Source: a virus
Taxonomy: Duplodnaviria; Caudoviricetes
Strand: one strand, 5' to 3'
DNA: 64,000 nt
Virus record (IMG/VR): IMGVR_UViG_2873063797_000002
Under the pieces are notes generated by a model, which did no database searches, was not told the DNA's origin, and saw only the letters and a list, made by a program, of their open reading frames with translations. Each line of letters opens with the position of its first letter. Position 1 is the stretch's first letter. The position numbers and the translations under genes are program-made. Positions 3,130 to 63,580 of this stretch are shown piece after piece.

Positions 3130-3503
3130 TTTCCGCAGGTCAGAGGTACTTCGGGGGGTGTACAACACGCCTCGGCGCGCTGGTAGCAGTCGACGTTCGT
3201 GCCCATCGCGACGTGCTCGCCCTGCCAGCGGTGCGAGGCCAGCTGGCGGCGCAGCAGCTCGGGCGCGTTCACCTTCACGACGATCTGGGAGTCGAAGCCG
3301 AGTCCCGTGTCGAGGTCCAGGTAGCTGTGCGTCTTGCGGGCGAAGCAGTACACGCACGCGTGCGTGCAGCCCCGGTACGGGTTCACGGTCCATTCGAACG
3401 GCATCCGCGAGGCGCCCGGCACCCGGTTGAGGATCGAGCGGGCCCGCACCTCGTGGAAGGTGATGCCGCGGAACTCGGGTGTGTCGGTTCTGTCATCTAA
3501 CAC
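3126..3503 (-). pseudogene. Internal fragment of a host Rv2578c-family radical SAM gene
   Basis: DTPEFRGITFHEVRARSILNRVPGASRMPFEWTVNPYRGCTHACVYCFAR with the CxxxCxxC motif; family-like sequence stops at YQRAE and is replaced by 14 unrelated codons; native N-terminus absent. Confidence 0.9.
3130..3175. other. Putative att junction of the left element
   Basis: Host-like codons end at CAG CGC GCC GAG G (minus strand, 3170); the sequence beyond is non-homologous. Confidence 0.7.
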
Positions 3504-3515
3504 GCATCAGAGCCT
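3478..3515. other. Putative att junction of the right prophage
   Basis: Host similarity starts near GAC ACA CCC GAG, about 40 bp upstream of the integrase start, as with phiC31 attP-int. Confidence 0.75.
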
Positions 3516-3528
3516 CTATCATGGGGCC

Positions 3529-5359: not shown

Positions 5360-5758
5360 GGGGCCTACCAAGATCGTTCCCGCGTCACACTTACGACATA
5401 ACAATAGTAGGAGGGAAGGACGAGGCGACCGCGACGAGTAGCGCGCGGCCCGCTTCCCTCCCCGACGGCCGGCACCGCTCCCGTGCTCCCCGCACTCTCC
5501 TCCGGGTTGAAGCGCGGTTGCAGCGGTCCGGCCGTCCAAGGTTTCCCGTCCGTCAGGCAGCGTGCGCCGGATCTCATCGAGGGTCGGCATGCAGACGCGG
5601 ACGGGGAGGACGTCAAGCGCCGCGGGACCTCTCGCGGAGAGCCTCTGACGCCCGCGCTGTACCGCGAGGCGCCGGGAACGGGGCTACTTGCCGCGGACAG
5701 AGGCCGTAGGGGCGAGGCCCCGTGACGATCAACACCCGGGCCTCACGGTCCGGACGTT

Positions 5759-11186: not shown

Positions 11187-12713
11187 GTGCCTATCGATGC
11201 ATCGAAGGTGGAGTCTCCCGGATGGTGGCTTCAGCGCCTTGGTAAGAAGCTCCTCGACGAGCGGGAGGACGTCACCGACGCCAGCGGCGAGAAGACTCCG
11301 GGGCTCGACACCCTCCGGGACTTCGCCGAAGGTCGACCGCCCGTTCCGCACGTCCTGGGCGTCGACCCGCGCGAGGCGCGAGAGTGGATGAAGGACGCGC
11401 GTACCAACTGGACCGCGCTCGTCCTCGACTCCCCGACAGAGCGCATGCACGTCGATGGCTTCCGCTTCGGCGATCCCAACGACGACAGCGAAGACGCCCG
11501 CAAGGCGGACACCGAAGCCAACCGCATCTGGCAGGAGAACAGCCTCGACGCGGACGCGGACCTCATCCACTACGGCGCACTTTCCCAGCGACGGGCCTTC
11601 GCCCTCGTCGAGCAGGGCGACGAGGGACGTCCCGTCATCACGCACGAGACGCCCCGACAGGTGGCCGTGGAGCACGTCCAGGGTAGCCGGCGGAAGCTCG
11701 CTGCGGGCCTGAAGCTCTGGCGCGACGACTGGACCGGGAACACCCGGGCGACGCTCTGGACACCGGACCGGATTTACGACTTCGTCTCCAGATCGGACCT
11801 CGTGACCTTCTCCGGTCGCGCGGCAACTCTTCGCGGCTGGGATGCCCTTGTCCTCCCTGATCGTCCCGACGGTGAGCGACCCAACGACCTGGGCATGGTC
11901 CCGCTCGTCCCCTTCATCAACCGCCGTAACCGGCGTCTGACCGGCTTCGCTGAGCACGAGGACGTTCTCAGCATTCAGAATCGGATCAACCTCAGCCTGA
12001 TCAACCTCATGGCCGCGATGAAGTACGGCGCCTTCCGACAGCGCTGGGCGGCCGGCCTGGAGGTCGGGGAGGACCCGGTCACCGGGAGGGCGATCGAGCC
12101 CTTCCAGCTCGACATTCGCCGGCTCTGGACGACGGACGACCCCGAAGTGAAGTTCGGCGAGTTCGCCGCAACCGATCTCAAGCCCTACGTCGCAGCCGTG
12201 CAGGCGGCCGTGCAGGATCTCGCCGCTATCTCGCGGACGCCTCCGCACTACCTGATTGGTGCAGTCGTCAACGTCTCCGGCGACGCCCTGAAGGCCGCGG
12301 AAACGGGTCTGATCAGCAAGGTTCGGGACCGTCAGCGCTCCTTCGGCGAATCTTGGGAGCAAACCATGAGGCTGGCCTTCCGCGTCCTGGGCGACGAGGC
12401 GAAGGCGACGACCTTCACCGCTGAGACCCTCTGGCGTGACCCGGAATCCCGCAGCATCGCGGAGCTTGCCGACGCTGCCGTGAAAAAGAGCACTGCCGGC
12501 GTTCCGTGGCGTCAGCGCATGGAGGACATGGGTTACACCCCGGCGCAGATCTCCCGCATGGAGATCGACCGGGCGGCCGACGCGATGAATGCTCAGACAG
12601 CCGTCGACCCGACCATGCCGCCTCCGGCCTCACTTGACGACGCTCGCGCACGACGTGATCAGCGCCCGGTGATCGGACGAGAGGACGACGACGATGCCGC
12701 TAACGCCGCTTGA
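11187..12713 (+). CDS. Portal protein (SPP1 gp6-like)
   Basis: Position after terL; VPFINR, FAEHEDVLSIQNRIN and SGDALKAAETGL motifs. Confidence 0.92.
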   Translation: MPIDASKVESPGWWLQRLGKKLLDEREDVTDASGEKTPGLDTLRDFAEGRPPVPHVLGVDPREAREWMKDARTNWTALVLDSPTERMHVDGFRFGDPNDDSEDARKADTEANRIWQENSLDADADLIHYGALSQRRAFALVEQGDEGRPVITHETPRQVAVEHVQGSRRKLAAGLKLWRDDWTGNTRATLWTPDRIYDFVSRSDLVTFSGRAATLRGWDALVLPDRPDGERPNDLGMVPLVPFINRRNRRLTGFAEHEDVLSIQNRINLSLINLMAAMKYGAFRQRWAAGLEVGEDPVTGRAIEPFQLDIRRLWTTDDPEVKFGEFAATDLKPYVAAVQAAVQDLAAISRTPPHYLIGAVVNVSGDALKAAETGLISKVRDRQRSFGESWEQTMRLAFRVLGDEAKATTFTAETLWRDPESRSIAELADAAVKKSTAGVPWRQRMEDMGYTPAQISRMEIDRAADAMNAQTAVDPTMPPPASLDDARARRDQRPVIGREDDDDAANAA

Positions 12714-15902: not shown

Positions 15903-16136
15903 GTGGCCAAGCTACGTACCTTCGTCCACGTGACGGACGACGAGGGCCGCCCCCACGCGTTCGGCCCCGCGGACGAGGTCCCGACGTGGGCTCAGGCCCT
16001 CATCACCAACCCGAAGGCGTGGGCGGAGGCGCCAGTCGCGCAAAACGACTCACGCGTCACCGCCCCGTCTGCGAAGCCCGCTGCGAAGCGCGCTGCGCCA
16101 CGGCGGAAGGCGGGCGGCAGTGGCACTGTTCAGTGA
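15903..16136 (+). CDS. Small head-associated protein
   Basis: FGPADEVPTWA...ITNPKAW, typical of actinophage post-capsid genes. Confidence 0.7.
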   Translation: MAKLRTFVHVTDDEGRPHAFGPADEVPTWAQALITNPKAWAEAPVAQNDSRVTAPSAKPAAKRAAPRRKAGGSGTVQ

Positions 16137-32362: not shown

Positions 32363-32459
32363 GCGTTGTGGCGAAAGACGCTATACAAACGCCCGTTCGA
32401 ATCCCGCACCGGCCATCTCTTCATATCAAGGGAGGAGAGGGCTTTCATGCACACCGCAC

Positions 32460-32478
32460 GCGTAAAACGACTCACGTG
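32460..32478 (+). promoter_or_regulatory. 19-bp operator-like repeat GCGTAAAACGACTCACGCG (13 copies; see findings)
   Basis: Near-identical copies from 16038 to 60103. Confidence 0.85.
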
Positions 32479-32496
32479 CTTGACCAGAACTTGGGA

Positions 32497-32525
32497 GGTT
32501 GTGTGGTCGACATACGTCCTATACT
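32497..32525 (+). promoter_or_regulatory. Class B promoter variant (GGTTGTGTGGTCGACAT...TATACT)
   Basis: Same core as 55081, 57283, 59220 and 60108, with a shorter spacer. Confidence 0.6.
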
Positions 32526-32532
32526 CCGCGAC

Positions 32533-33159
32533 ATGCCGACCTCACCCGGCCCGCTTCTATCCGCTGTCAGCACGCTATGGCAGCGACTAAGGAGCAACGT
32601 GCCAGATCTACCCGACATTGTCCCCGCCGTGTCGCCGACCACCCGGCGACTGGACCACGGCCAAGAGCGGTGGGCACGCGACGAGGAGGGACGAGTATCG
32701 GGCCTCGTTCTTACCGTCGATGTGCTGCAAGAGGGCCCTGAGTGCGCCCTAGACATGATCCTCCACGATGCGGCGCACATACTGTGCTGGACGCGGGGGA
32801 TCGCTGAGACGACCATGCACGGCGTCTACCACAACGCCCAGTTCCTGACGGCCGCGGAGGAGGTGGGACTGACATGGCCGGAGGACGCCACACGCGTGCG
32901 TGGGAAGGGCTATCACACGCCCGTCCTCACCCCTGAGACAAAGGAGCGGTACGCGGAGAACATGAGGGAGCTGGAGGAGGCTATCCCTCTCGTCCTTCCG
33001 CATCTGGAGTTGCCGCCGACGTCGAACCGAGGCCGCGTCGATCGCCTCACGCTCCGCTGCAAGTGCAAGCCGGCACGGAGCTTCCGTATCTCCCGGACCA
33101 TCGCAGCTCAGGGAGCTATTCACTGCGCCGTATGCGATAACGATTTCACGGAGGACTGA
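32533..33159 (+). CDS. SprT-like zinc metallopeptidase-fold protein with HDxxH variant and C-terminal Zn ribbon
   Basis: ILHDAAH...YHNAQFLTAAEEVGL; CKC...CAVC. Confidence 0.65.
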   Translation: MPTSPGPLLSAVSTLWQRLRSNVPDLPDIVPAVSPTTRRLDHGQERWARDEEGRVSGLVLTVDVLQEGPECALDMILHDAAHILCWTRGIAETTMHGVYHNAQFLTAAEEVGLTWPEDATRVRGKGYHTPVLTPETKERYAENMRELEEAIPLVLPHLELPPTSNRGRVDRLTLRCKCKPARSFRISRTIAAQGAIHCAVCDNDFTED

Positions 33160-33251
33160 TCAACTAGAGCTACCGTGGGGTAAGGTCTCCCTAAAGTCAG
33201 TGCTTCACGGTACTCTGCCTCTGGCGGAGGTGCGTCTAGGGAGAGGTCGAG

Positions 33252-34028
33252 ATGAGCCCGAAGGAAGTTGCCCGACTGCGTGACGATGCGGCTGTAAAGC
33301 GCGTCAGTGCTGCGAGCGTCCAGGCCCTCGACCTCGAAACCATCGAGAACGAAGCGACTCCGACGCTCATCGCTCGTGGTGCCGCCTACGCTCGCGAGTA
33401 CGCCGCCATCGAACACAAGCCAGAGCTACTCGCGAAGAACATTGCTGTGGTTCTCCTGGCGCTGCGGAAGCGTCATGACGACTGGCTTGGGCGGATGGGT
33501 GACTACCGACGTGATGCGGCAGAGGTCTACAGCGCTGCCAACATCAGGGATCGAGAGCAACTGAAGCGGCTTCAGGCGAACGTGCGCTACCACGTCGGCA
33601 ACATGGTGCGCCGCCACCTCACCCCGCGGGAGCTGAAGGCGCTAGAGCTGAAAGACGCCTCGCCACTGGAGCGTCAGCAGGACCGGCGAGCGACGGACAC
33701 AGCCATTCTCCGCGCGACGAAAGTGGCGGCTGACGTGGAGGCTTCGACTCCGAAGACGTCGAAGGCAGCGAAGAAGCCGAAGGGCCAGGCCGCGGAGGAG
33801 ATCGTCCCCACGCAGGGCGGAGGTCCCGGTACCGGTGTCAAGGCGACTGCCGACCACCTACGCCTGGCTGAGGTCGCGGCCGGCATCGTCAGTAAGCTCG
33901 ACGTCGACGTCATCGACGGGCACATGACCGACGGTCAGCGTGCCAGACTCGACGAGGAGCTTGCGGAGATGGAGCGCACCGTCCGCCGGCTGCGCCGACA
34001 CCTGAAAACTCGCAGGTCAGAGGACTGA
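33252..34028 (+). CDS. Putative repressor/DNA-binding protein (positional analogue of phiC31 c)
   Basis: Basic helical protein between the late and early regions, behind an operator-bearing promoter; no recognised HTH. Confidence 0.4.
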   Translation: MSPKEVARLRDDAAVKRVSAASVQALDLETIENEATPTLIARGAAYAREYAAIEHKPELLAKNIAVVLLALRKRHDDWLGRMGDYRRDAAEVYSAANIRDREQLKRLQANVRYHVGNMVRRHLTPRELKALELKDASPLERQQDRRATDTAILRATKVAADVEASTPKTSKAAKKPKGQAAEEIVPTQGGGPGTGVKATADHLRLAEVAAGIVSKLDVDVIDGHMTDGQRARLDEELAEMERTVRRLRRHLKTRRSED

Positions 34029-34179: not shown

Positions 34180-34282
34180 AGTGGAGGAGGACGCGGAAGA
34201 TCTTCGACGGCCCGCGTCACATGCGCTCCGGATTACGACATAACCCATGTGTAAGCCACTGACGGACTGCACAGGGAGCCAC

Positions 34283-35086
34283 ATGGCAGGCGTGAGCACC
34301 ATCAAGCGCGGCGACAGCCGCTTCTACATCGACCCCGACGACGGCGACATCAAGGTCCCGGGCGTGACCAGTGTCGGCAGCATGCTGCCGAAGGACTACC
34401 TCATGTACTGGTCCGCGAAGGAGGCTGCGGAGGCGGCCGTCACCAACTGGGACATCGTCTCCCAGCTCGTCCAGCGTGACCCTGCCGGCGCCGCCGACTA
34501 CCTGAAGAACGCGCACCGGCGGAAGTCGAAGGCCGCGAGTGACCTGGGCACCGCCGCGCACGACTACTTCGAGCGACTCGCGCGAGGCGAGACGGTCAAC
34601 GACCGCTCCGTCCACATGGACGTGAAGCCTCACGTCAGGTGGTTCCGCGAGTTCCTCCAGGAGGTTCAGCCGGAGTTCCTCTACATGGAGGAGACGGTGT
34701 GGAGCGACAGCCACCGCTACGCCGGCTCCTTCGACGCCATCGCGAAGGTGGACGGGGAGGTCGTCATCCTCGACTGGAAGACGTCGAAGTCGATCTACGA
34801 CTCCGTAGCCCTCCAGCTCTCCGCCTACCGCTACGCGGACCGCATCATCCTCGCGGAGTCGGGGGAGTCGGTCGATGTCCCGGAGATGGTCGGCGGAGCC
34901 GCCCTGCACGTCCGCCCGGAGGGCTGGGCGCTGCACCCGGTGAAGTGCGACCGCACGGTGTTCGACACGTTCCTCCACCTCCGCGGCGTCTTCGACTGGG
35001 AGAAGGAAGGGAAGAAGAAGGTCATCGGCAAGCCGATTGCCTCCGGTGGAGAGTTCGTTACCGGCACTCAGAGGAGAGCGGCGTGA
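34283..35086 (+). CDS. PD-(D/E)xK exonuclease (RecB/Cas4-like)
   Basis: VPGVTS, LGTAAH, YAGSFDAI...ILDWKTS, QLSAY. Confidence 0.85.
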   Translation: MAGVSTIKRGDSRFYIDPDDGDIKVPGVTSVGSMLPKDYLMYWSAKEAAEAAVTNWDIVSQLVQRDPAGAADYLKNAHRRKSKAASDLGTAAHDYFERLARGETVNDRSVHMDVKPHVRWFREFLQEVQPEFLYMEETVWSDSHRYAGSFDAIAKVDGEVVILDWKTSKSIYDSVALQLSAYRYADRIILAESGESVDVPEMVGGAALHVRPEGWALHPVKCDRTVFDTFLHLRGVFDWEKEGKKKVIGKPIASGGEFVTGTQRRAA

Positions 35087-35792: not shown

Positions 35793-35923
35793 ACGACGCT
35801 CCTCCTCGTCCTGGGCGCTGACGCACTGGCGGTCGTGACGTCGAAGTTCCGCAAGTAGCACCAGTCGCACACGCGGGGCGTCCACACCGGGCGCCCCGCT
35901 TCGCATGCACACAGGAGGAGAGC

Positions 35924-39749: not shown

Positions 39750-39813
39750 CCCATGTGTAAGGCCGAACAAGGCCGCACACACCACGCACACCGCCAACGA
39801 AAGGCACTCACAC

Positions 39814-40596
39814 ATGGCGAACAACCTCGCGAACATCTGGGACGCTGACCCCGACGCCGCTCCGAAGGAGCGCCCCTCCTTCTCCGACGACATCGCGGGC
39901 CGCTTCCGGTCCGGCCGCCTCGTTAAGACGGGGCGGACGGAGACGCCGGAGAGCCTGAACGAGTGGCGCGTCACCACGGGTGACCCCAGCGTCGCAGCGA
40001 AGGTCGCGGAGATCCTGGGCGGGAAGCCGGAGTCGTGGGAGACGGACCGGGAAGACAACCTGGAGATCCTCACCGACGCCAAGACGGTTCAGATCATCAT
40101 CGAGCCCGACGGCGTCGACGCGAGCTTCAAGCAGTTCGTGCCGGGTGCTGGGATGACGCACCACTGCGACGGCTTCAAGTACCTGTCCCCGGACGAGGAC
40201 AAGGGCCAGCCCTGCGGCTGCCCGTCGTACATCGCGGAGCGCAAGACGGCCGCCGACAAGCTCCGCGGACCGAAGCCCAGCGTCGACGTCACCTTCCGCA
40301 TGGCGGACGCGCCGGACCTGGGGAAGTTCAGGTTCAACAGCGGCTCTTGGAAGCTCGTGGAGGCCCTGGGCCCGCTCTTCGCCGACCTCGACAAGCACGG
40401 TAACGCGGGCGACGAGGAGAACGGCGTCGACGGTGTCCCGACCCGCGCGTCACTGACCATCGAGAACGTCACCTACGTTCCGAAGAAGGGGCCCCGCGCC
40501 GGCCAGACAGTGAGCTACAACAAGCCGGTCATCAAGATCTTCGGCCCCGTCGCCGCTGAGGTCGCGGAGGACGAGGGCCTGAGCCAGGCCGCGTAA
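39814..40596 (+). CDS. Recombination directionality factor, phiC31 gp3-like
   Basis: GRFRSG, WRVTTG, HHCDG, GQPCGCP and LGKFRFNSGSW match the recalled phiC31 gp3 motifs. Confidence 0.85.
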   Translation: MANNLANIWDADPDAAPKERPSFSDDIAGRFRSGRLVKTGRTETPESLNEWRVTTGDPSVAAKVAEILGGKPESWETDREDNLEILTDAKTVQIIIEPDGVDASFKQFVPGAGMTHHCDGFKYLSPDEDKGQPCGCPSYIAERKTAADKLRGPKPSVDVTFRMADAPDLGKFRFNSGSWKLVEALGPLFADLDKHGNAGDEENGVDGVPTRASLTIENVTYVPKKGPRAGQTVSYNKPVIKIFGPVAAEVAEDEGLSQAA

Positions 40597-52391: not shown

Positions 52392-52495
52392 CGTGTACCT
52401 GAATCACTGTGTGACCCACGTCACAAAACATCAGCGTCACATCCGCCTCGGATTACGACACAACACAAGCACAAGGCACACACGGAGGAGTTCAC

Positions 52496-53266
52496 ATGAG
52501 CCGCGACCAGATCAACGCCGACCAGATCCGCGCCGCACAGGGTGGCAACAGTGACGCCATGTGGCAGATCGTCATGGGTCTGGACGCGACTCTCCGCGGC
52601 ATCGTCCGCAGCGTCGCCCCGACGGCAAACGAGAAGGACGCGGAGGACTACCTCCAGGAGGCGCGGGTGGTCCTGATCCAGCGCATCAAGGACTTCGACT
52701 CCGACGCGTCGTCGGCATCGCTGATGACTTACGTCTATCAGGCAGCCCGTCGCGCGGTGACGGAGGCGCACATCTCCAACTCGTGCCCCGTCTCCGTTCC
52801 CGCATCGGCCGCGATCGTCGTCCGTCACCTCCTGTGGCGCCACGGTGGCGACGCGGAGAAGGTGTGGGCGGAGCTGGAGGAGCAGCGGAGCGCCACGCAC
52901 AAGATCTCCCGGGAGATGTTCGTCTCGGTCATCGAAGCACTCGCGGAGGTGACGAGCCTCGACGCCCCCACCGGCGGAGAAGACGGCGACGGCTCCGGCC
53001 TCACGCTCTCCGACGTCCTCCCCGACCCCTTGTCGGAAGCCACCGACTCCATCGAGCGCCGCGACCTGGCCCGGTGGCTCATGACGCAGATCCCACAGCG
53101 CCAGGCATACGCGCTTCGCGCCTTCTACGGCGTCGGCATGACGAAGCAGGAGGACGCGGAAACGTGCGACGACCTGACCGTCAAGCCGGCCGCCCTCCGC
53201 AAGCTCCGTTCCCGCGGACTGTGCAGCGCGCTTGCCGTCGCAGACGCGCACGACGTGACCGCGTGA
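52496..53266 (+). CDS. Phage-encoded sigma-70-like RNA polymerase sigma factor
   Basis: DAEDYLQEA (region 2.2), SLMTYVY, SLDAP, LSDVLPD and a region 4-like C-terminus. Confidence 0.8.
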   Translation: MSRDQINADQIRAAQGGNSDAMWQIVMGLDATLRGIVRSVAPTANEKDAEDYLQEARVVLIQRIKDFDSDASSASLMTYVYQAARRAVTEAHISNSCPVSVPASAAIVVRHLLWRHGGDAEKVWAELEEQRSATHKISREMFVSVIEALAEVTSLDAPTGGEDGDGSGLTLSDVLPDPLSEATDSIERRDLARWLMTQIPQRQAYALRAFYGVGMTKQEDAETCDDLTVKPAALRKLRSRGLCSALAVADAHDVTA

Positions 53267-54548: not shown

Positions 54549-55046
54549 GTGACTAGACACACACTGAGGTGCCGTGTAACCGACGGGGACTACGCGGAGG
54601 CGCACATCGACGCGGACGGCGACGTGCGCCTTGAGGTGCACATGGGTCAGCACACCTCCGCCTTCGTCTACGGCCGCCCCACAGAGTTCGCCGCCTTCGC
54701 CCGTGCCGTCCTGGCAGGGACGGGGGAGAGCGTGGAGACGCTGACCGACGGGTCGATCAATGTAGGTGACCGGGTGGAGATCCTCCCGTCCGCCAACAAC
54801 ACGACCACCGCTGGCCGTGTGGGAGTCGTCAGTAAGGTCGACCGTAGCGGTAACGACGACATGCCGTACCGAGTCGACGACGAGGCGGGCGGGTTCATTG
54901 CCTGGGCGACGCGAGTCCGCAAGATCTCCAGCGATTCCGCCACCTCCCCGCGCGCTGACTTCGTCTCCCAGGCCCGCGCCGCACTCGACGGCACCAACCC
55001 CACGGCCGCAGACATAGTCCGCCTCGCGGAGTTCCTGGCCGGCTGA
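54549..55046 (+). CDS. Paralog of 53509 with one KOW/SH3-like repeat
   Basis: INVGDRVEI, DxxPYRV; SPRADFVSQARAAL tail. Confidence 0.7.
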   Translation: MTRHTLRCRVTDGDYAEAHIDADGDVRLEVHMGQHTSAFVYGRPTEFAAFARAVLAGTGESVETLTDGSINVGDRVEILPSANNTTTAGRVGVVSKVDRSGNDDMPYRVDDEAGGFIAWATRVRKISSDSATSPRADFVSQARAALDGTNPTAADIVRLAEFLAG

Positions 55047-55080
55047 CGCGTAAGTCGTTTCACGCGACTTTCCCCGCAGG

Positions 55081-55112
55081 GGTTGTGTGGTCGACATAAC
55101 CCGTGCCATAGT
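55081..55112 (+). promoter_or_regulatory. Class B promoter (TTGTGT-N18-CATAGT), also at 57283, 59220 and 60108
   Basis: GGTTGTGTGGTCGACATAACC is identical in four places, each preceded by an inverted operator. Confidence 0.8.
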
Positions 55113-55175
55113 CATCACATCGCAAGGCACACACGGAAGGGGCGCTCCGCACGGGGCGCCCCAGGGGAGGACGTC

Positions 55176-55511
55176 ATGGCACTCACCTTTCACCTGATCT
55201 CGTACCGCACCCTGTCGGGCGAGACAGGCGTGGCCCGGGTCGGTACCGACCGCACCCGCCCGGTCCGATCGGAGTGCAGGGAGCAAATCCCCGGCTTCCT
55301 CAGCGGATCGCACCTGGGGCCGGAGCCGACCCTCACGCTCACCTACGAGACGGAGCGCGGGACGCAGACGAAGACGGTCAGCCGCACCCTGCTGAACCGC
55401 AGCGTCGGCCGGCTCGTCGCCCGCGCTGCGGACCGGGGCGAAGCGTGGAACATCGCCGTCGTCGACGAGCGCGGGGAGGATGTCACCGACTCCGTCCCCT
55501 GCTTCGCCTGA
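55176..55511 (+). CDS. Hypothetical protein (cassette 1)
   Basis: GGAGG RBS after the class B promoter. Confidence 0.65.
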   Translation: MALTFHLISYRTLSGETGVARVGTDRTRPVRSECREQIPGFLSGSHLGPEPTLTLTYETERGTQTKTVSRTLLNRSVGRLVARAADRGEAWNIAVVDERGEDVTDSVPCFA

Positions 55512-55544
55512 CCAACTAGCCGAAGCGCCCTCCGCGGCGCTGGC

Positions 55545-55619
55545 GCCCCGCATAGGCAAGCCCGACTACCCGGTACCCCCAGTGCCGGCGGGCGCGCGGT
55601 TCGAATCCGCGGCGGGGCA
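55545..55619 (+). ncRNA. tRNA-like RNA (75 nt; perfect acceptor and T arms, non-canonical D arm)
   Basis: GCCCCGC/GCGGGGC-A; CGCGG-TTCGAAT-CCGCG; CCGGTA-CCCCCAG-TGCCGG. Confidence 0.65.
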
Positions 55620-55654
55620 CTTCACAGACCTACCGACTCACTAAAGGAGCAACC

Positions 55655-55936
55655 TTGTTCGAGATCTCCCGCATCGCCGACCTGCACCCCACGGCGATCA
55701 CGCACAGCGCCCGTCAGCTCCGCCTAGTCTTCCCCAACGGCTTCGGCGCGTCGGTCATCACCGACGGATACGGCGCGGAGGAAGGGCTCTACGAGGTGGC
55801 CGTGCTGGACGCGGACGGGCACGTCACCTACGACACCCCGGTCACGGGCGACGTCGAGGGATACCAGACCTCCGACGAGGTCGCGGCGCTCCTGCACAGC
55901 ATCGCGGTCCTGCCATCGTCCGCGCTGGAGCGGTGA
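55655..55936 (+). CDS. Conserved phage hypothetical protein
   Basis: FPNGFGASVI...GLYEVAVL...YDTPVTGDV; AAGGAG RBS. Confidence 0.65.
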   Translation: MFEISRIADLHPTAITHSARQLRLVFPNGFGASVITDGYGAEEGLYEVAVLDADGHVTYDTPVTGDVEGYQTSDEVAALLHSIAVLPSSALER

Positions 55937-56282
55937 CCGTGAAGCACAACCCCAACGACTCCGCCATCCGCGCCGCCTTCGACCGCTTCCACACCACGGC
56001 GTCGACGTCCCGCAAGTCGGCCGTCGCCCAGCTCCACACCGACATGAAGCGCGCCGGGGGACCGGTGCCGCAGGAGGAGGAGAAGTGACCACGCAGTACG
56101 AGGAGCACTACATCGTCGAGCACGTCAAGGCGGAGGGGAAGGTCGACGTCGAGCAGTACGACAACCCGTCGGAGGCGATCGGGGCCTACAACGAGCTGGC
56201 CCGTGTGCTGAGTCGCGGAGAGAAGATCAACCTCCACCGGTACAGCTCCGTCGTGCTCGCCTCGTCCGCCCGCGCGAAGTAG
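55933..56282 (+). other. Two small coupled hypothetical genes (55933-56088, 56085-56282)
   Basis: GTGA couplings. Confidence 0.5.
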
Positions 56283-56293
56283 GAGACCCGACC

Positions 56294-56920
56294 ATGCCGA
56301 GGCCCTCCCGACTCCCGTTCCGCGCAGCCGTCGTCACGGCCTCTGCGGCGACCGTCGCTGCCCTGGCGTTCACCATCGCCCCCGACGCGCAGGCGCCCGA
56401 CTACCCGCGTCTGTCCGACGTCGTCTCCGCCCCCGTCGTGACGCCCTCCCCGAACTCTCCGTCGCCGTACCGTCCGGAGCCGCGAGAGCCCCGTCAGACG
56501 ACGCGGGACGAGCCGCGCAAGACACTGACGCCGACGCCCTCCCCGACGGTCGCGAAGCCGTCGAAGACGCCCGCCGTGAAGCGGCCCATCGCGAAGCCGC
56601 CGGCCGACATCCGCATCAGCTTCTACCGCGACTGCACCGGCCACGCTCAGCAGTGCATCGACGCCGGCACCCTGACGATGTACGCGGGCAAGATCCTGGC
56701 CGGCCACAACTACGACGGCTATCAGTGGCTCTCCCGCGTCCCCGTCGGCCGCACGGTCCGCGTCATCTCCGGCCCGCTCGCGGGGACGTACCGGGTCTAC
56801 GGCCACCAGTACATCGACCGCCAGGGCGGCAAGATCCCGGCGTTCAGCGGCGGCCCGGACCTCGTGCTCCAGACGTGCGAGGGGGAGGGGACGGGGTTCT
56901 CGCTGCTACGTCGGGTCTGA
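56294..56920 (+). CDS. Membrane-anchored sortase-fold protein
   Basis: N-terminal TM, Pro/Thr linker, ILAGHN...LVLQTC...LRR. Confidence 0.6.
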   Translation: MPRPSRLPFRAAVVTASAATVAALAFTIAPDAQAPDYPRLSDVVSAPVVTPSPNSPSPYRPEPREPRQTTRDEPRKTLTPTPSPTVAKPSKTPAVKRPIAKPPADIRISFYRDCTGHAQQCIDAGTLTMYAGKILAGHNYDGYQWLSRVPVGRTVRVISGPLAGTYRVYGHQYIDRQGGKIPAFSGGPDLVLQTCEGEGTGFSLLRRV

Positions 56921-57352
56921 TCAACAGCCACGCCAACCACGCTCGTAGAGGAGCCATCATGCCCACCTTCGCCGACTCCCTTGATCAGTTCTTCAACGAC
57001 CTCCGTGACGCCGGGGAATGCGAGTTCTGGGAGTGCCCGCGCACGGGTGCCCAGCCTCACGACCGTAACTGCCTGACGGGCAGTTCGACGGACGACGACG
57101 AGTAGGAGTCCACGTGATGATGCTCGGACGGTTCTGCCCCGACGGTCCTGGCGGCCGTGACTGCTACTGCTGCGGACAGCCGCCGGGGAGGGGGAGGACC
57201 CTTGCCCGTCGGGCGCAGCGCCGCAGGGAGCGGCACGCTTGGCGCAAGAGCGTGAGTCGTTTTACGCGAGTTGGCGAGTAGGGGTTGTGTGGTCGACATA
57301 ACCCGTGCGATAGTCGCTACAGCGAAAGGCACTCACTCACGAAGGAGTCGAA

Positions 57353-57982
57353 ATGAACCTCTGCACCTCCACCCGCCGCAAGGTCACCAAGCACTACGGC
57401 ACCACGTGGGTGTTCGGTCAGCCGGAGTGCGGCAAGCCGGCGACGCACTTCCGCAAGACGGCCGACGACTCCGGCGCCTCCGGGTGGATCATCTACATGT
57501 GCGAGGAGCACGCGGGGGAGGGCTTCGAGGTCATCGCAGACGAGGAGCCGGCGGAGGCCGTCGAGCACCGGGAGACCACGGTCACCGTCGCGGGCGTCGA
57601 CCGCGTCATCCGCACGGAGGTGGGAGGCCGTGTCCGCACCGTCAAGCAGCTCGAAGCGGCGCACACGAAGGCCGTAAAGGCGGCCCTCGTAGAGATGCGT
57701 AAGGCGAACCTGGCGGGCTTCCAGGAGGCCGCGAATGCTGCGGAGGTTAGCGCAAAGAAGAACCCCGGCTCGTGGTTCACTCAGGAGGACGCCAAGCGGG
57801 CGCGCAACATCGCTCGTCGGGCGGAGCGAGGGACCCTCTACTCCCACACCTCCCCGTGGGCGTCGGACCTGAAGCCGTTCCCCCCGGTCAAGTTCACGGA
57901 CGAGGTCCCCGCCTACCTCGTCGAGATCGAGCCGGGCCACTACGCGACGGAGGAGGCCGCGGAGTCGCTCACCCTCTTCTAG
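57353..57982 (+). CDS. Hypothetical protein (cassette 2)
   Basis: AAGGAG RBS after the class B promoter; N-terminal C..C..C Zn motif. Confidence 0.7.
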   Translation: MNLCTSTRRKVTKHYGTTWVFGQPECGKPATHFRKTADDSGASGWIIYMCEEHAGEGFEVIADEEPAEAVEHRETTVTVAGVDRVIRTEVGGRVRTVKQLEAAHTKAVKAALVEMRKANLAGFQEAANAAEVSAKKNPGSWFTQEDAKRARNIARRAERGTLYSHTSPWASDLKPFPPVKFTDEVPAYLVEIEPGHYATEEAAESLTLF

Positions 57983-57990
57983 ACCCTTTG

Positions 57991-58021
57991 GAGCCCCTGT
58001 CAATTCCGGTGACAGGGGCTC
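57991..58021. repeat. 31-bp hairpin GAGCCCCTGTCAATTCCGGTGACAGGGGCTC (identical copies at 59656-59686 and 60519-60549)
   Basis: Three exact copies, each just after a cassette gene. Confidence 0.9.
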
Positions 58022-58031
58022 TAGGCGCCAG

Positions 58032-58229
58032 TCACTTGCGCCTCCACCTGAAGACCGCGTCGACGAGGGAGCGGAAGTAGTCCCCCAGGGCGCGGATGAT
58101 GTGGGGGCGAGCGTCCTCCGACGTCCCGCGCAGAGCAATGCGCAGGCCGATGATGCCGCCGGCTACGACGACGAGGACGCAAAGGACGAGGGCGAGCAGG
58201 ACCCACGGCAGAGCTTCAGCGAACGACAT
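58032..58229 (-). CDS. Small membrane protein, antisense to the early operon
   Basis: One long TM helix; basic C-terminus RWRRK. Confidence 0.55.
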   Translation of the reverse strand: MSFAEALPWVLLALVLCVLVVVAGGIIGLRIALRGTSEDARPHIIRALGDYFRSLVDAVFRWRRK

Positions 58230-58615
58230 GACGAACCCTTCGTGCCATGCCTTCGGAGAGGGCGCCGCCCCGTGGCGACGCTGCAACCTCAACGAAGGAC
58301 AGTTGTGCCTGTCAGACACGGCGCCCGCTAGGCCGTGCTCCGCCGGAGCGGATTCGTTGAAGTCGATACTCCCGATCTTCGGTACTGCGGTACTGCGTTG
58401 CGCGGGCGGACAGGCATTGGCCACAACGTCTGTCCCTACGAGGGGCGTTCAGAAGCCCCATTCGTCCTCCGGGGAAACTGTCCCAGGGACGAGATCTTTC
58501 CAGTTTTCCGATGGCGCCTTTGGCGGCGACGCCTCTTCTCACTTTCCGGGGAGGACGGTAGCCCACGAACCTGGCGCCGTGTCAACTCAGCCACGAGGCA
58601 CTCACAGGAGGAGCC

Positions 58616-58813
58616 ATGCCCGTATTGACCATCCCCGCCCGCGACATCCGCCAGGGCGACCGCTTCAGCCTCCATGGCTTCCGCCGCACGGCTTCTGACG
58701 GAGCCTGGCCGTGGGGAGACCACAGCGTCAGCCTGACCTTCGAGGACGGAGGCTACGCCCTCGTGTCGGACGACACGGAGTTCGTCGTCAACCGCGACGG
58801 GGAGGCGGTGTGA
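58616..58813 (+). CDS. Small beta-barrel-like protein, paralog of 59711
   Basis: ARDIRQGDRF; GGAGGAG RBS. Confidence 0.6.
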   Translation: MPVLTIPARDIRQGDRFSLHGFRRTASDGAWPWGDHSVSLTFEDGGYALVSDDTEFVVNRDGEAV

Positions 58814-59202
58814 CGGAATACGACTACTACAACCCACCTCCGCCGGGGGTCCGCGTCTCGACGGACTTCGGCGACTACGCAACGTGCCATGCGTGCGGAG
58901 GGTTCACGACAGTGTGGCGTGACGGCTTGCTCGCCCTTCACGACCGGCCCCGGGCCGGCGGGCAGTGTCCGGCGTCGTGGTCCGCGGCGGATCTGGAGTC
59001 CGCGATAGCGCGAGACGACCGCCTCAACCCGGAGGAGGAGACGGCAAGCTCCTGGGCGTGGCGATGGGTCAGCATGTGCAGGGGCTACCAGACACTAAGC
59101 AACGGCAGTACGGAACACTGCTGGCACCCCATCTGCGAGGAGCGGAAGGCGAAGGGGATCTACTGGACGCTCTCCGGGTGGAGACGTCGCGACGTCGCGT
59201 GA
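58810..59202 (+). CDS. Cys/His-rich hypothetical protein
   Basis: CHAC...H...C; C...C..P.C. Confidence 0.55.
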   Translation: MTEYDYYNPPPPGVRVSTDFGDYATCHACGGFTTVWRDGLLALHDRPRAGGQCPASWSAADLESAIARDDRLNPEEETASSWAWRWVSMCRGYQTLSNGSTEHCWHPICEERKAKGIYWTLSGWRRRDVA

Positions 59203-59303
59203 GTCGTTTTACGCGATGAGGTTGTGTGGTCGACATAACCTGTGTCATAGTTAGGGCACCGCGAGGGACACACGGTCTCTCCCAAACCTCCCCGGAGGTC
59301 ACC

Positions 59304-59639
59304 ATGAACGCCACGACCAACACCATCGAGGCCGGCACCATCGTTCGCGCCCCGCGGGTCGTGGCGACCGTGTCCACCGGGGTCCGCAAGGGACTCGTTG
59401 TCGACACCTTCGGCGACTCGGCCTTCCTCGTCTGGTTCTACGGCGCCGGCGACGCCAAGACGGAGACCCGCCTCGTCATGAAGCGGGAGATGACGGAGGT
59501 CGGCAGCGTCGGTGACCTGTCGGAGCGGATGCTCTCCCGCCTCCTGGGCGGCATGACGGAGGACGGTCCGGCCCGCGCGATGGGCTTCAAGATCCACCGT
59601 CTCCGGGCGCAGCTCCGCTCCGCGCGCCGGGGCTACTGA
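59304..59639 (+). CDS. Hypothetical protein (cassette 3)
   Basis: GGAGG RBS after the class B promoter. Confidence 0.65.
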   Translation: MNATTNTIEAGTIVRAPRVVATVSTGVRKGLVVDTFGDSAFLVWFYGAGDAKTETRLVMKREMTEVGSVGDLSERMLSRLLGGMTEDGPARAMGFKIHRLRAQLRSARRGY

Positions 59640-59710
59640 CCACCCCTCACCATGTGAGCCCCTGTCAATTCCGGTGACAGGGGCTCGCTCAGTTCTCGTT
59701 TGGAGGAACC

Positions 59711-60090
59711 ATGCGCGACTACCGTCGTTTGATCATGGCTGAGGCCATCCGCCAGGGTGACTCACTGGAGTTCAAGGGCGCGCAGAGGGCGGTGAGCGAA
59801 CCGCCCCGGATGGGCCGGTTGCTGCACCACGTCTTCGTGTCCTTCACGGATGGGGAGGAGGCCGTGTTCACGGCTTCCGACCCCGTCATGGTGCACCGGC
59901 AGGACGCGGCATGTTCCGCCTGACCTTCGAGGACGGCCTCTCCTTCCTCGTCGACGAGGACGCGCGGCTCCACTTCCTCCGCCTGGCGAAGCGCCGGGGC
60001 GACGAGCTGACCCGGGTCCGCGGAGGCCACGTCATCACCCTGGCCGGCCGACGGGTGCGACGGGTGGCGATCATTGCGGAAGTCGCGTGA
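59711..60090 (+). other. Two small genes (59711-59923, paralog of 58616; and 59911-60090)
   Basis: AEAIRQGDSL motif; overlapping ORFs. Confidence 0.55.
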
Positions 60091-60176
60091 GTCGTTTTAC
60101 GCGACGGGGTTGTGTGGTCGACATAACCTGTGTCATGCTGAGGGCACAGCGTAAGGCACTAGCGAAGGAATTGGGC

Positions 60177-60509
60177 ATGAGCACCGCAATTGAGACGGTC
60201 TCGAAGCTGGTAGGGAAGTGGGTCGCGGCTCGTGCCGAACTGGCGGAGATCGAGCGGGCGGAGCACCCGGACATCGTCGACCGCCACGGCCGCACGTGGA
60301 CGTGGTTCGGGCGAGGTGACCTCTACCGGCACTGCGGCAACGCCGCTCCCGCATCCATGATCGACCAGTTCGGGCGCCGCCCGCAGGTGATCTTGGACAA
60401 CCCGAACTACGACCTCTGTGACGTCTGCATCGACGGAAGGGTTCGTAACGCCCCCGTCTGCAAGCCGGAGTGGGACTGCTCGCACAAGTGGTGCGCGAGC
60501 CATCGCTAG
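60177..60509 (+). CDS. Hypothetical protein (cassette 4)
   Basis: After the class B promoter; DRHGRTW and CDVC motifs. Confidence 0.6.
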   Translation: MSTAIETVSKLVGKWVAARAELAEIERAEHPDIVDRHGRTWTWFGRGDLYRHCGNAAPASMIDQFGRRPQVILDNPNYDLCDVCIDGRVRNAPVCKPEWDCSHKWCASHR

Positions 60510-60589
60510 GCACACTCGGAGCCCCTGTCAATTCCGGTGACAGGGGCTCCGGTTCACACTCACAACTCACGCACACTGAACGAGGAGCC

Positions 60590-61237
60590 ATGAGAGCACT
60601 CCGCCGGCTGGACCCCCTTCTGATCCAAGCCATCATCGCCGCCGCACTCTCCTTCGCCCACATCCACGACATCGCGGAGGCTGCGGGACAGGGCGGATGG
60701 AAGGCGTGGGCCTACCCCGTCTCCGTCGACGTCCTCCTCGTCATGGCCTGGAAGCGCGTCAGGGAGGCGGAGGAGGGCGAGTCCATCGCCGCCGCGCGCC
60801 TGTGGTTCTGGCTCTCCCTGGCTGCGTCCATGAGCGCCAACGTGGCTACGGCCGGCGTGATCGACCTGGAGCACCCCCCGACGATGCTCCGCGTCCTCGT
60901 CGCCGCGTGGCCGGTGCTGGCGTTCTTCGGGGGTTCGCTCCTCGTCCACTCCCGCAAGGCACCCACGAAGGCCACTGAGGGGCCGCAGGAGGCCGCTGGA
61001 GAGCCTGCGGGGGAGCCGGTGGAGGAAGTGGTCCCGGAGCCCGTGGAGGAGCCCCAGAGGCCCAACCTCGTCACCTACGCGGAAGCGGCGGCCATGGCCG
61101 ACGTCGCCCCCGAGACGATCCGCGGCGCCGCGAACGGCCCGAAGGCCCGACTGACGAAGTACGAGACGAACCAGGGACCGCGCGTCGACCTCGACGAGGT
61201 CCGTAAGGTCTACAGCAAGCGCCCTGCGGGCGTGTGA
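60590..61237 (+). CDS. DUF2637/SpdA-like membrane protein with C-terminal HTH
   Basis: LSFAHI...AWAYPVSVD, SMSANVA, AAWPVLAF; TYAEAAAMADVAPETIR. Confidence 0.75.
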   Translation: MRALRRLDPLLIQAIIAAALSFAHIHDIAEAAGQGGWKAWAYPVSVDVLLVMAWKRVREAEEGESIAAARLWFWLSLAASMSANVATAGVIDLEHPPTMLRVLVAAWPVLAFFGGSLLVHSRKAPTKATEGPQEAAGEPAGEPVEEVVPEPVEEPQRPNLVTYAEAAAMADVAPETIRGAANGPKARLTKYETNQGPRVDLDEVRKVYSKRPAGV

Positions 61238-62480: not shown

Positions 62481-62690
62481 TCAGACGTCGCCACGCTTCA
62501 CAGCGTCGACGAAGCCCCACCACGTGTCAGCGGAGAAGACGACCGCCGGGCCGGCGGGACGCTTGCTGTCGCGCACGGGGAGAGCCGCGGGAACGGCACC
62601 GTGGGCGACCTCGACGCAGTCACCTTGGTTGCCGCTGTATGACGACTTCGTCCAGGTAAAGGGCAAGGCGGAAGAGTTGGGGATCATCAT
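62481..62690 (-). CDS. DUF397 protein
   Basis: WTKSSYSGNQGDCVEVA...VRDSK...P...F....W..F. Confidence 0.93.
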   Translation of the reverse strand: MMIPNSSALPFTWTKSSYSGNQGDCVEVAHGAVPAALPVRDSKRPAGPAVVFSADTWWGFVDAVKRGDV

Positions 62691-63580
62691 CAGATGGAGT
62701 CCTTCAGTCGTTCAATGAGGTCGGCTGAGTCGTCGAACGGCAACGCTGCGGCCCTCAGCCGCTCGAAGGCGCTGCCGTAACGGCTCACTTCCGTATGGTC
62801 CTCGACATACAAGGCGTTCGTCAGGTTCTCCAGATAGACGACGTCAAGGTCAGCCGTCTCGGGGAAGCCGAACAGTACGAAGCTTCCGATCATCCCCACG
62901 TGTGGCGGGGCATCGAGCGGAAGCACCTGTATCGAGACATTCGGAAGCTCTTGTCTGTCGAGCAGCGATTGAAGCTGCTCCTTCATGATCTTCGGGTGGC
63001 TCTTGACCCGCGGACGGAGCGCAGCCTCATGGATGACGGCCCACAGCTCCAGAGGGTCCGGGCGGGTAAGGACGGACTGACGAGCCATCCGCACCTCTGC
63101 CAGCCGGTTGACCTCGTCGGGGGTCGACGTCATACCCGTGGCGCTCAGCGTCGCGCGAGCGTAGGCGACCGTCTGGAGGAGTCCCGGGATGAGGGTGGAC
63201 TGGTACGAGCGCATCGACTGTGCGTCAGCCTCCAGGCTGATCAGGTCCGCGTACGCCGGGGAGATCAAGTCTTTGTAGGTCTGCCACCACCCGCGCCGGC
63301 TCCCATGCCGCGCGATGGAGCGGAGGACGGTACGAAGGGACTCGTCCTCGACGTCGTAGAGGTCCAGAAGCTCGTCAAGATCGTCAGGCTTGATGCCCAG
63401 GCGCCCCAGTTCGACGCGGCCGACCTTCGATTCGGGCATCGACGTGCGAGCGGCGACGTCTTCGAGTTTCAGCCCCTTGGCCTGGCGCAACTGACGCAGC
63501 TTCGCCCCAAGCTGACGCTTGCGCACCGTCGGCTCACCTACTGCGCCCAACTCGTCCCCGATTCCTCGTCTCTGCGCCAT
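62690..63580 (-). CDS. XRE HTH plus DUF5753 regulator (WhiJ/Scr1-like)
   Basis: RRxLGAKLRQLR, IPGLLQTVAYARA, RMARQ, VIHEAAL, VYLEN. Confidence 0.93.
   Translation of the reverse strand: MAQRRGIGDELGAVGEPTVRKRQLGAKLRQLRQAKGLKLEDVAARTSMPESKVGRVELGRLGIKPDDLDELLDLYDVEDESLRTVLRSIARHGSRRGWWQTYKDLISPAYADLISLEADAQSMRSYQSTLIPGLLQTVAYARATLSATGMTSTPDEVNRLAEVRMARQSVLTRPDPLELWAVIHEAALRPRVKSHPKIMKEQLQSLLDRQELPNVSIQVLPLDAPPHVGMIGSFVLFGFPETADLDVVYLENLTNALYVEDHTEVSRYGSAFERLRAAALPFDDSADLIERLKDSI

Follow-up and report, generated by a model that had tools for sequence, protein, structure and literature searches.

A repeat-punctuated array of putative repressor-controlled gene cassettes in a temperate Streptomyces prophage

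The window, by which we mean the whole 64,000-nt stretch of DNA analysed, carries a prophage with an array of short genes at one end, punctuated by recurring operator-like, promoter-like and hairpin sequences. We interpret this accessory (hyperplastic) arm as a set of repressor-controlled, moron-like cassettes whose repeats act as seams for homologous recombination, a reading to which we give a probability of roughly 60%. Under this model, the phage immunity repressor would bind a 20-bp operator, four copies of which are placed directly upstream of cassette promoters. The other operators, between genes of the early and late operons, would be comparable to the CIR operators of phiC31 or the stoperators of R4 and L5. 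A promoter-leader block of ~70 nt (TTGTGT as a -35-like box, an 18-nt spacer, TGn-CATAGT as an extended -10 and AAGGCACWCAC as a conserved leader) would restart transcription at each cassette, and a tail-less, GC-rich RNA hairpin would end or attenuate the cassette transcript. Because the modules are nearly identical within and between related phages, they could serve as homology arms, through which recombination, general or phage-encoded, may insert, delete, replace or relocate the intervening genes, and a captured gene would fall automatically under the control of the resident repressor.

The prophage and its relatives

The prophage is ~58 kb long and lies within an 8.39-Mb Streptomyces genome. 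Its nearest phages were TG1, Nesbitt, phiSASD1, phiBT1 and phiC31, at 64–69% nucleotide identity. Homologues of the phiC31 lysin, gp52, exonuclease gp1, gp3, gp4, gp5, primase and polymerase were found. On this sequence evidence, the best reading is that of an integrated temperate Streptomyces phage, with phiC31 as a distant relative. A large serine integrase is encoded at 3334–5061, ~50 kb from the array, together with a Gp3-like RDF (directionality factor). The array occupies the attR-proximal prophage end, remote from the integrase. Just upstream of it lies the gene of a phage sigma-like protein (52496–53266, + strand), a possible reader of one repeated promoter class. The protein has a Sigma70_r2 domain, as does phiC31 gp12. 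Across the 8.39 Mb of the genome, every copy of the promoter core, the operator and the hairpin was confined to this one prophage. For comparison, a set of six prophages was used, consisting of that of the window and five relatives, including MH60, SID5910, G401, G402 and G403.

Promoters, hairpins and cargo of the array

An earlier sequence-only reading had described the array as self-contained expression cassettes, each with an inverted operator, an identical promoter and an identical hairpin. The promoter was confirmed: its 21-bp core, GGTTGTGTGGTCGACATAACC, occurs exactly at 55081, 57283, 59220 and 60108, where shuffled sequences give an expectation of 0. The core also forms the imperfect dyad that had been proposed, with seven of eight positions pairing. 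Downstream of each copy stand yGTGy and a -10-like hexamer (CATAGT, GATAGT, CATAGT and CATGCT in units 1–4), and the predicted promoters 1–4 span 55081–55112, 57283–57314, 59220–59251 and 60108–60139, all on the + strand. Promoter 1, with TGn-CATAGT, continues into the conserved leader AAGGCACWCAC, and a GC-rich leader hairpin follows (55139–55162, +). The -35-like box TTGTGT agrees with TTGACA at three of six positions, and the conserved core exceeds a -35 hexamer in length. A consensus scan of the region returned no canonical sigma-70 promoter, with neither repeated promoter class matching.

Two elements had been overlooked in the sequence-only reading. One is a fifth, degenerate copy of the core at 32497, with three mismatches; the other is a second class of repeated promoter, which heads the replication genes. 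Both classes, predicted promoters throughout, have five copies each. The degenerate class-1 promoter, with a -10-like TATACT, is combined with a reversed operator (32459–32525, +) and heads an operon at the immunity position (32536–34028). The sigma-like gene is located behind a promoter of the second class and not of class 1.

The hairpin sequence of 31 bp was likewise exact at all three sites, 57991–58021, 59656–59686 and 60519–60549 (+). It is built of a 12-bp GC-rich stem and a 7-nt loop and has no U tail; its folding energy was -27 to -30 kcal/mol (z -4.6 to -6.8). The 14 copies collected from eight contigs were 96% identical by column. Their stems were perfect, with two compensatory pairs and additional G-U changes, and the loop ATTCCGG was kept in 12 of the 14.

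The description of the units as self-contained held only in part. All four have an operator and a promoter, but unit 1, which combines seven ORFs with a tRNA-like sequence, lacks a closing hairpin, ORFs I, J, L, M and O lie downstream of hairpins and lack a recognisable promoter (the gap being 25–45 nt for L and O), and a reverse-strand ORF and a spacer come after hairpin 1. Thus, the units are not all self-contained. Given the absence of U tails and the lack of a visible promoter before ORFs I, L and O, the hairpins cannot be complete terminators.

The cargo of unit 1 (55176–57281, +) comprises ORF A (55176–55511), the tRNA-like sequence (55545–55620), ORF B (55655–55936), ORF C (55933–56088), ORF D (56085–56282), ORF E (56294–56920), which encodes a sortase-like peptidase, ORF F (56959–57105) and ORF G (57117–57281). 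Unit 2 carries ORF H (57353–57982, +), whose 209-aa product has no family; its homologues in MH60 and G403 differ at the N-terminus and sit in the same promoter-hairpin frame. Downstream of hairpin 1, a small reverse-strand ORF (58032–58229, -) encodes a membrane protein of 65 aa. Together with a 385-nt spacer, it forms a segment (58032–58615) present only in the window prophage and G401. ORFs I (58616–58813) and J (58810–59202) follow on the + strand, the stop codon of J being inside operator 3. In unit 3, ORF K (59304–59639, +; 111 aa) was assigned to DUF6409 / phrog_21348. Behind its hairpin are ORFs L and M (59711–60090, +), of which L is a paralogue of ORF I (32% identity) and M has its stop codon inside operator 4. 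The last unit carries ORF N (60177–60509, +), encoding a Cys-rich protein of 110 aa without a family, and the right flank is formed by ORF O (60590–61237, +), a DUF2637 membrane protein conserved in all six prophages. The sequence-only reading had taken the cargo for immediate-early anti-host or anti-defence genes by inference. Hardly any cargo protein had a named family, and PADLOC gave zero matches among them.

Operators and cassette turnover

The operator-like motif, CGCGTGAGTCGTTTTACGCG, is 20 bp long and lies 4 nt (units 3 and 4) or 14 nt (units 1 and 2) upstream of the core. Its four array copies (+) are found at 55047–55066, a variant with two mismatches, at 57249–57268, over the last codons of ORF G, and, in exact form, at 59196–59215 and 60084–60103. 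An operator-like motif before each promoter was correctly recognised by the sequence-only reading. The inverted arms measure only 5 bp around an asymmetric core, and the half-sites of the window type agree at 7 of 10 positions. That reading had missed the spread of the motif across the whole prophage: there are 13 copies in the window, with 0 expected. Nine of them are in reverse orientation (16037–54522, -; at 16037, 18268, 32459, 35921, 39637, 45548, 52340, 53461 and 54503) and sit between genes of the late and early operons. These nine non-array copies are oriented alike, and the four array copies are opposite. All but one of the 13 lie between ORFs or at ORF ends, the copy at 16037 being inside a possible 77-aa ORF.

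Array operators are found upstream of the -35 box (about -43 to -72), in either of two positions offset by 10 bp. Such a placement is at least as compatible with activation or looping as with simple occlusion. The operator of the immunity operon differs from those of the array in geometry, being in reverse orientation at a distance of 18 nt.

G402 and G403 have their own near-perfect or perfect palindromic 20-bp operators, which take the corresponding place upstream of the same promoter. Nine copies of each are present genome-wide, and the other operator types are absent from each genome. Since each immunity type has its own operator in the same pre-promoter place, in about 9–13 copies per genome, common control of the cassettes by one DNA-binding protein is plausible from the sequence comparison. 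The two proteins encoded at the immunity position showed no DNA-binding/HTH family and no fold match, nor did they resemble phiC31 c, and no homologue of the phiC31 repressor c was found in the prophage.

The five relatives keep the design and differ by whole cassettes. One promoter and one hairpin are common to the six prophages, which have three operator specificities and largely different cargo. Gene content is hence not fixed, and the earlier proposal of a recombination-shuffled accessory region was borne out by differing cassettes or cargo and by breakpoints at repeats. By protein or DNA comparison, only the families of C, O and M are common to all six arrays, with that of I present in five; most other array ORFs are singletons without a family. 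The promoter-H-hairpin cassette occurs in three of the six prophages, and the J-promoter-K-hairpin-L segment only in that of the window, to which ORF K is unique. Leader and hairpin of the last cassette are the same in the window, MH60 and SID5910, but the three cargos that they enclose are unrelated to one another; in the latter two, other genes replace ORF N exactly between these elements. Gene N itself sits behind promoter 4 in the window, behind promoter 1 in G403, and without such a promoter in four other viral contigs. Between the window and MH60, 6 of 16 breakpoints fell at repeat edges, with the repeats amounting to about 8% of the array, and ~10 of the 16 lay away from repeats. Many coincided with the promoter block or with gene overlaps and not with the hairpin.

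More tentatively, the operator-promoter-leader block and the hairpin might form a portable capture system. Their seams of ~88 nt and 31 nt would move single genes between phages and array positions, and the immunity-specific operator would wire a captured gene into the resident repressor circuit. If their predicted functions hold, the compact repressible promoter with its leader and the 31-bp insulating hairpin are parts for Streptomyces genetics. The locus is a clean, small natural case of accessory gene gain and loss in temperate Streptomyces phages. The ORFans evidently traded by these phages (A, B, H, J, K, N and the replacements) are candidates for host-takeover, exclusion or counter-defence roles.

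Alternative readings and known systems

The sequence-only reading had also proposed an integron-like platform, on which a site-specific recombinase would capture and shuffle cassettes at the hairpins. Repeated hairpins do close cassettes with variable ORFan cargo, but this idea is highly improbable: no IntI-type tyrosine recombinase was found among the ORFs at 52–64 kb, and the sole recombinase found was the serine integrase. Moreover, each cassette has its own promoter instead of a shared Pc, the perfect, near-invariant hairpin contrasts with the variable, imperfect attC sites, and many breakpoints are not at the hairpin. A different role for the hairpin, as an RNA-stabilising or processing element or as a protein-binding palindrome within longer read-through transcripts, is unlikely. 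The missing U tail, the promoterless ORFs I, L and O and the conserved loop would fit such a role; however, the G-U-compatible changes favour an RNA structure of the coding strand, and the hairpins immediately follow stop codons, as terminators typically do. Tail-less terminators are also on record for the phiC31 early region, as far as the title of Ingham et al. 1995 tells (cited in PMC2602773).

Two further alternatives concern expression. The cassettes could be morons expressed in the lysogen together with the immunity operon, for superinfection exclusion, defence or host modification, class 1 then being a maintenance-type promoter activated or autoregulated by the operator-binding protein. 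We consider this possible but doubtful. The same core and operator head the immunity-position operon (32459–34028), the array operators take two helically phased positions upstream of the -35 box, the array is attR-proximal and distant from the integrase, and the replication genes have a different promoter class. In addition, some cargo is of a membrane or secreted type, namely E, which is sortase-like, and the small membrane ORF on the reverse strand. What speaks against it is the different operator geometry at the immunity operon and the fact that the equivalent phiC31 operators adjoin lytic early promoters. Should the class-1 promoter also drive the immunity operon, the array would amount to a set of exchangeable host-modifying or defence genes, expressed in the lysogen and coupled to the repressor. 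Reading of the 21-bp core by the phage's own sigma-like protein, which would make the cassettes delayed-early or middle rather than immediate-early genes transcribed via the host holoenzyme, has a low probability. The position of the Sigma70_r2 gene, the domain shared with gp12, the lack of a canonical sigma-70 match and a 15-nt block around the -35 position kept in all six phages point that way. Nevertheless, TGn-CATAGT is retained even where the remaining core drifts, as expected for an extended -10 host promoter, and the sigma gene itself belongs to the other promoter class.

The preferred reading, of repressor-controlled cassettes with recombination seams, has a close parallel in phiC31. 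Ingham, Smith and co-workers reportedly described CIR operators, conserved early promoters and tail-less terminators in its early region in 1993–1995. In the phiC31 genome (NC_001978), we found a palindromic operator in at least eight copies and a non-canonical repeated promoter in 10–12 copies, with an operator-promoter spacing of ~30 nt. The two phages share the exonuclease, gp3 RDF, primase, polymerase, gp52 and lysin, and both have a serine integrase and, behind the polymerase, a sigma-like gene. They also have in common a multi-copy intergenic operator, a repeated non-canonical promoter before early genes and GC-rich tail-less hairpins. In contrast, neither operator nor promoter matches in sequence (up to three mismatches), and the window operator is asymmetric and orientation-biased. 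There are also two promoter classes here, one reserved for accessory cassettes and the immunity-position operon, and a single exact 31-bp hairpin is reused three times.

In T4-type phages, conserved promoter and stem-loop motifs (promoter-early stem-loops, PeSLs) punctuate a hyperplastic region of non-essential ORFans; indels and replacements between close relatives end at these motifs, and homologous recombination between motifs was proposed as the driver (PMC2839356, PMC4122927). The window array resembles them in the concentration of motifs in a hyperplastic ORFan region and in endpoints at motifs (6 of 16, and the last-cassette replacement in three genomes). Unlike the PeSL phages, which are lytic myoviruses, the window phage is a temperate actinophage. 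Its promoter and hairpin are unfused and flank the cargo 400–1200 nt apart, abutting at one G402 site only, and its module includes a predicted repressor operator. The array is a fresh example of a known phage design and leaves the general picture from phiC31 and the PeSLs unchanged.

Mycobacteriophage L5, with gp71 as its repressor, is a repressor-stoperator system; stoperators are asymmetric sites in transcribed intergenic spaces and point one way relative to transcription. In the Streptomyces phage R4 and its relatives, many repressor sites occupy the short intergenic spaces of early and late operons and a lytic promoter (PMC10276819). The window operators are similar in their many intergenic sites in both operons and in the single orientation, relative to transcription, of the nine non-promoter copies. 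They differ from stoperators as 20-bp sites with inverted ends, fully palindromic in two relatives, and in the opposite orientation of the promoter-proximal copies.

Morons of lambdoid phages were reportedly described by Juhala et al. and Hendrix et al. in 2000. As in those, units 2–4 each place one gene, equipped with a predicted promoter and terminator, between two genes that adjoin each other in a related phage; unlike in those, all units use the same promoter, operator and terminator sequences.

Repeated control elements and their prophage

Exact copies of the 21-bp promoter core GGTTGTGTGGTCGACATAACC were found at 55081, 57283, 59220 and 60108 (units 1 to 4 of the cassette array), and one copy with three mismatches at 32497; shuffled sequences gave 0 expected copies. 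The 31-bp hairpin was exact at 57991, 59656 and 60519 (hairpins 1 to 3). A 20-bp operator-like motif, CGCGTGAGTCGTTTTACGCG, stood upstream of every core, by 4 nt in units 3 and 4 and by 14 nt in units 1 and 2. All copies of core, operator-like motif and hairpin in the host genome (8.39 Mb, 66% GC, Streptomyces type; the window is G000:C1:6586304-6650303) fell within one region, the prophage. Because of this confinement and the zero expectation for cores in shuffles, the repeat finding is real and far above chance. The repeated operator, identical promoter and identical hairpin described in the sequence-only reading were therefore borne out.

The prophage was marked by a plus-strand gene run from ~7.8 to 62.4 kb, as seen from codon-position GC. 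It encodes a large serine integrase (3334-5061; Resolvase, Recombinase and Zn_ribbon_recom domains), a PD-(D/E)XK exonuclease (34247-35086) and a Gp3-like recombination directionality factor (39814-40596). Searches with phiC31 proteins (tblastn) returned homologues of lysin, gp52, gp1, gp3, gp4, gp5, primase and polymerase at 39-56% identity, and none of the repressor c, gp12 or the integrase. A 256-aa phage sigma-like protein at 52496-53266 (Sigma70_r2 domain; phrog_351 and phrog_15865) is syntenic with phiC31 gp12, which likewise has Sigma70_r2. The nearest isolated phages were TG1, Nesbitt, phiSASD1, phiBT1 and phiC31, with 64-69% nucleotide identity over primase and polymerase. Together, the landmark genes, phiC31 homologues and nearest phages make the prophage a distant relative of phiC31 and place the array in its accessory part, at the end away from the integrase. 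Two terminase-large-subunit-like stretches were also present (812-1417 and 10418-11095); the position of the first, to the left of the integrase, suggests that another phage-type element, or a remnant, adjoins the prophage.

Beyond the array, the 20-bp motif brought its total in the window to 13 copies. Nine of these, at 16-54.5 kb, were all in the opposite orientation and placed in intergenic spaces of the late and early operons. The degenerate promoter copy stands before the operon at 32.5-34.0 kb, and the operator 18 nt upstream of it is reversed. A further class of repeated promoter-like sequence, GCGTCACATCCGCC..GGATTACGACAYAAC, whose copies have the element CGACAYAAC in common, occurred before the gp52-like (31400), exonuclease (34236), gp3-like (39742) and sigma-like (52456) genes, with a partial copy at 5394. 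Its skeleton, CCGGG.T..CGAC, bears a loose likeness to the phiC31 early promoter. Behind both promoter classes, just upstream of ribosome sites, lies a leader motif, AAGGCACWCAC (39800-39812, 52480-52490, 55125-55135, 57326-57336 and 60153-60160).

Anatomy and turnover of the cassettes

Each promoter block starts with the operator and a spacer of 4 or 14 nt, and continues with GG, a TTGTGT -35-like box, an 18-nt spacer, and TGn with a -10-like hexamer (CATAGT, GATAGT or CATGCT). After the hexamer come ~10 nt and the conserved leader CGCAAGGCACWCAC, then sequence specific to each cargo and a ribosome site. Between units, no relatedness was left on the left of the operator, on the right of the leader or on the left of each hairpin. 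Three upstream open reading frames (ORFs) terminate in or at the operator: J and M, which precede promoters 3 and 4, stop at the TGA within the motif, and G, in unit 1, reads through operator 2.

Not all units were as tidy and self-contained as proposed earlier: unit 1 holds seven ORFs (A-G) and a tRNA-like sequence, without a closing hairpin. Hairpin 1 precedes a small ORF on the reverse strand and a spacer of 385 nt, and ORFs I-J, L-M and O (the last in the right flank) come 25-45 nt or more after hairpins, with no visible promoter. A higher-order arrangement was discernible: hairpin, I or L, J or M, operator-promoter, K or N, hairpin. I and L are paralogues with 32% identity.

Relatives were found by motif and protein searches, namely prophages of Streptomyces sp. 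MH60 (L007, also L008 and L010) and Streptomyces sp. SID5910 (G271, L013) and the IMG/VR proviruses G401, G402 and G403. Array maps of these and the window were drawn from blastn and all-against-all blastp. By comparison of proteins or DNA, only three gene families, C, O and M, were common to the six arrays; I occurred in five, all but G402. A, B, J and K were confined to the window among the six prophages, F and G were in none of the five relatives, and D was common only to the window and G402. The peptidase gene E was absent from G401 and G402 and a fragment in G403; in SID5910 the hairpin directly follows it. The operator-promoter-H-hairpin cassette (unit 2) was present in the window, MH60 and G403, with an N-terminal half that differs among the three. 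The reverse ORF and spacer after hairpin 1 were common only to the window and G401.

In the last cassette, the window, MH60 and SID5910 each carry a different, unrelated cargo; homology ends at the leader and restarts at the first base of the hairpin. An N homologue, 70% identical, sits in G403 behind the first promoter of the array, the place of A in the window. Four further viral contigs have N homologues without the cassette promoter, two of them with hairpin variants nearby. Homologues of N form ~30 clusters, every one hypothetical and originating from Streptomyces or unnamed metagenome sources. The window-MH60 comparison gave 16 breakpoints, 6 of them at repeat edges, the repeats making up ~8% of the array. 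Gene content thus differs among relatives instead of being fixed, and the region is shuffled, as the sequence-only reading had held.

Cargo annotation was sparse. PADLOC gave no matches among the cargo proteins, and the sole NCBIfam match was a weak, sortase-like one for E, a membrane-anchored peptidase. Pfam identified K as DUF6409 and O as DUF2637; no relatives of K were detected in viral contigs.

Several smaller features lie among the cassettes. ARAGORN called a tRNA-Gly(CCC) at 55545-55620 inside unit 1, and an Rfam search up to E 0.1 returned no tRNA at this place. Conservation of the sequence is 95% in SID5910 and G403 and 83% in G402; MH60 keeps the 3' part only, and G401 lacks the sequence. 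A GGGGCGC...GCGCCCC hairpin, with family members near 35880 and 45590, sits in the unit 1 leader at 55139-55162, between promoter 1 and ORF A's ribosome site. SID5910, G402 and G403 retain it in their first unit; it may act as an attenuator or stabilise the 5' end. The segment 58032-58615, with the 65-aa hydrophobic reverse-strand ORF and the non-coding spacer, is 80% conserved in G401 only; it may contain an RNA or a promoter of its own.

Predicted promoter recognition, termination and repression

A consensus scan found no canonical sigma-70 promoter in the region. The TGn-CATAGT element and the block GTTGTG...TGGTCGA were both retained in all six phages, even with the rest of the core drifting. 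As first choice, we take the cassette promoter to be a predicted extended -10 host promoter; recognition by the phage's own sigma-like protein is a serious alternative. Room is also left for expression of the cassettes in the lysogen, given that their promoter is common to the operon in the immunity position (32536-34028) and that the operators are upstream and helically phased. Common control of the cassettes by one DNA-binding protein, the regulatory part of the earlier proposal that they are switched on together, is plausible, each immunity type having its own operator at the same place before the promoter.

The hairpin folds at -27 to -30 kcal/mol. Fourteen copies, drawn from 8 contigs, showed two compensatory pairs (A-U to G-C, U-A to C-G) and G-U-compatible single changes on the coding strand. 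The hairpin has no U tail; tail-less terminators have reportedly been recorded in the phiC31 early region. Since I, L and O come after hairpins without promoters, the predicted termination can only be partial.

The window-type operator was common to MH60, SID5910 and G401. G402 and G403 carry other 20-bp sequences in its place, 3-5 nt upstream of the same promoter; the two are palindromic, perfectly so in one G403 copy. Each of these two types has nine copies across its own genome, and each type was never found in genomes of the other types. Such a multi-copy, position-fixed, genome-specific pattern has the look of putative immunity-specific repressor sites. It parallels phiC31, where palindromic CIR operator sites were located in NC_001978 together with 10-12 copies of the repeated early promoter. 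A repressor-stoperator system has been reported for Streptomyces phage R4 and relatives (PMC10276819).

Both proteins of the immunity-position operon (32536-33159, 207 aa; 33252-34028, 258 aa) were kept in all six prophages. The former has an HDAAH motif and a C-terminal Cys cluster, and its partner is all-helical and basic. Neither had a Pfam, NCBIfam or PDB-sequence match or resembled phiC31 c, and the all-helical AF2 model of the 258-aa protein (pLDDT 65) gave no fold match. The divergence of both parallels overall phage divergence, so neither is singled out as the repressor.

Just past the array, on the minus strand at 62481-63580, lie an XRE-type HTH-DUF5753 regulator and a DUF397 partner, which may belong to the prophage or to the host, with 76-84% nucleotide identity in four relatives. 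The regulator (62690-63580) is unlikely to determine operator specificity, being equally similar in G403, which has a different operator type, and MH60. With its flank, the unit 3 operator (59190-59222) folds in plus orientation into an 11-bp stem with G-U pairs (-15 kcal/mol; minus, -5.8), a fold that could be fortuitous or could serve as a weak insulator ahead of the promoter. An RNA-hairpin role for the plus-orientation operator was dropped, as the unit 1 variant is unable to form the extended stem.

Recombination and known systems

In the simplest mechanism, co-resident or co-infecting phages would undergo homologous recombination at their near-identical control modules, with arms of ~88 nt on the 5' side and 31 nt on the 3' side. 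The prophage exonuclease is of the type employed by phage recombination systems. The cassettes resemble the moron concept of lambdoid phages. An integron-like platform, as once suggested, was rejected: there is no IntI among the ORFs of 52-64 kb and no attC, every cassette has its own promoter, and each defining feature tested fails. A mobile element of the MITE or REP-like sort was not favoured; all motif copies are limited to the prophage. Motif-to-motif homologous recombination has been proposed, with experimental support, for the promoter-early stem-loop (PeSL) cassettes of T4-type phages (PMC2839356, PMC4122927).

The locus is best filed as phiC31-type control architecture with PeSL-like behaviour. 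The phiC31 CIR and early promoter have no sequence homology to the window motifs. The locus differs in its asymmetric, orientation-biased operator, in setting one promoter class aside for the immunity-position operon and the accessory cassettes, and in the reuse of a single exact hairpin. It adds a compact case of three operator specificities on one promoter-hairpin chassis.

In G402 (L030, reverse-complement 11861-11955), a diverged hairpin directly abuts the operator and promoter; with the terminator predicted, this junction is a composite terminator-operator-promoter of the PeSL kind.
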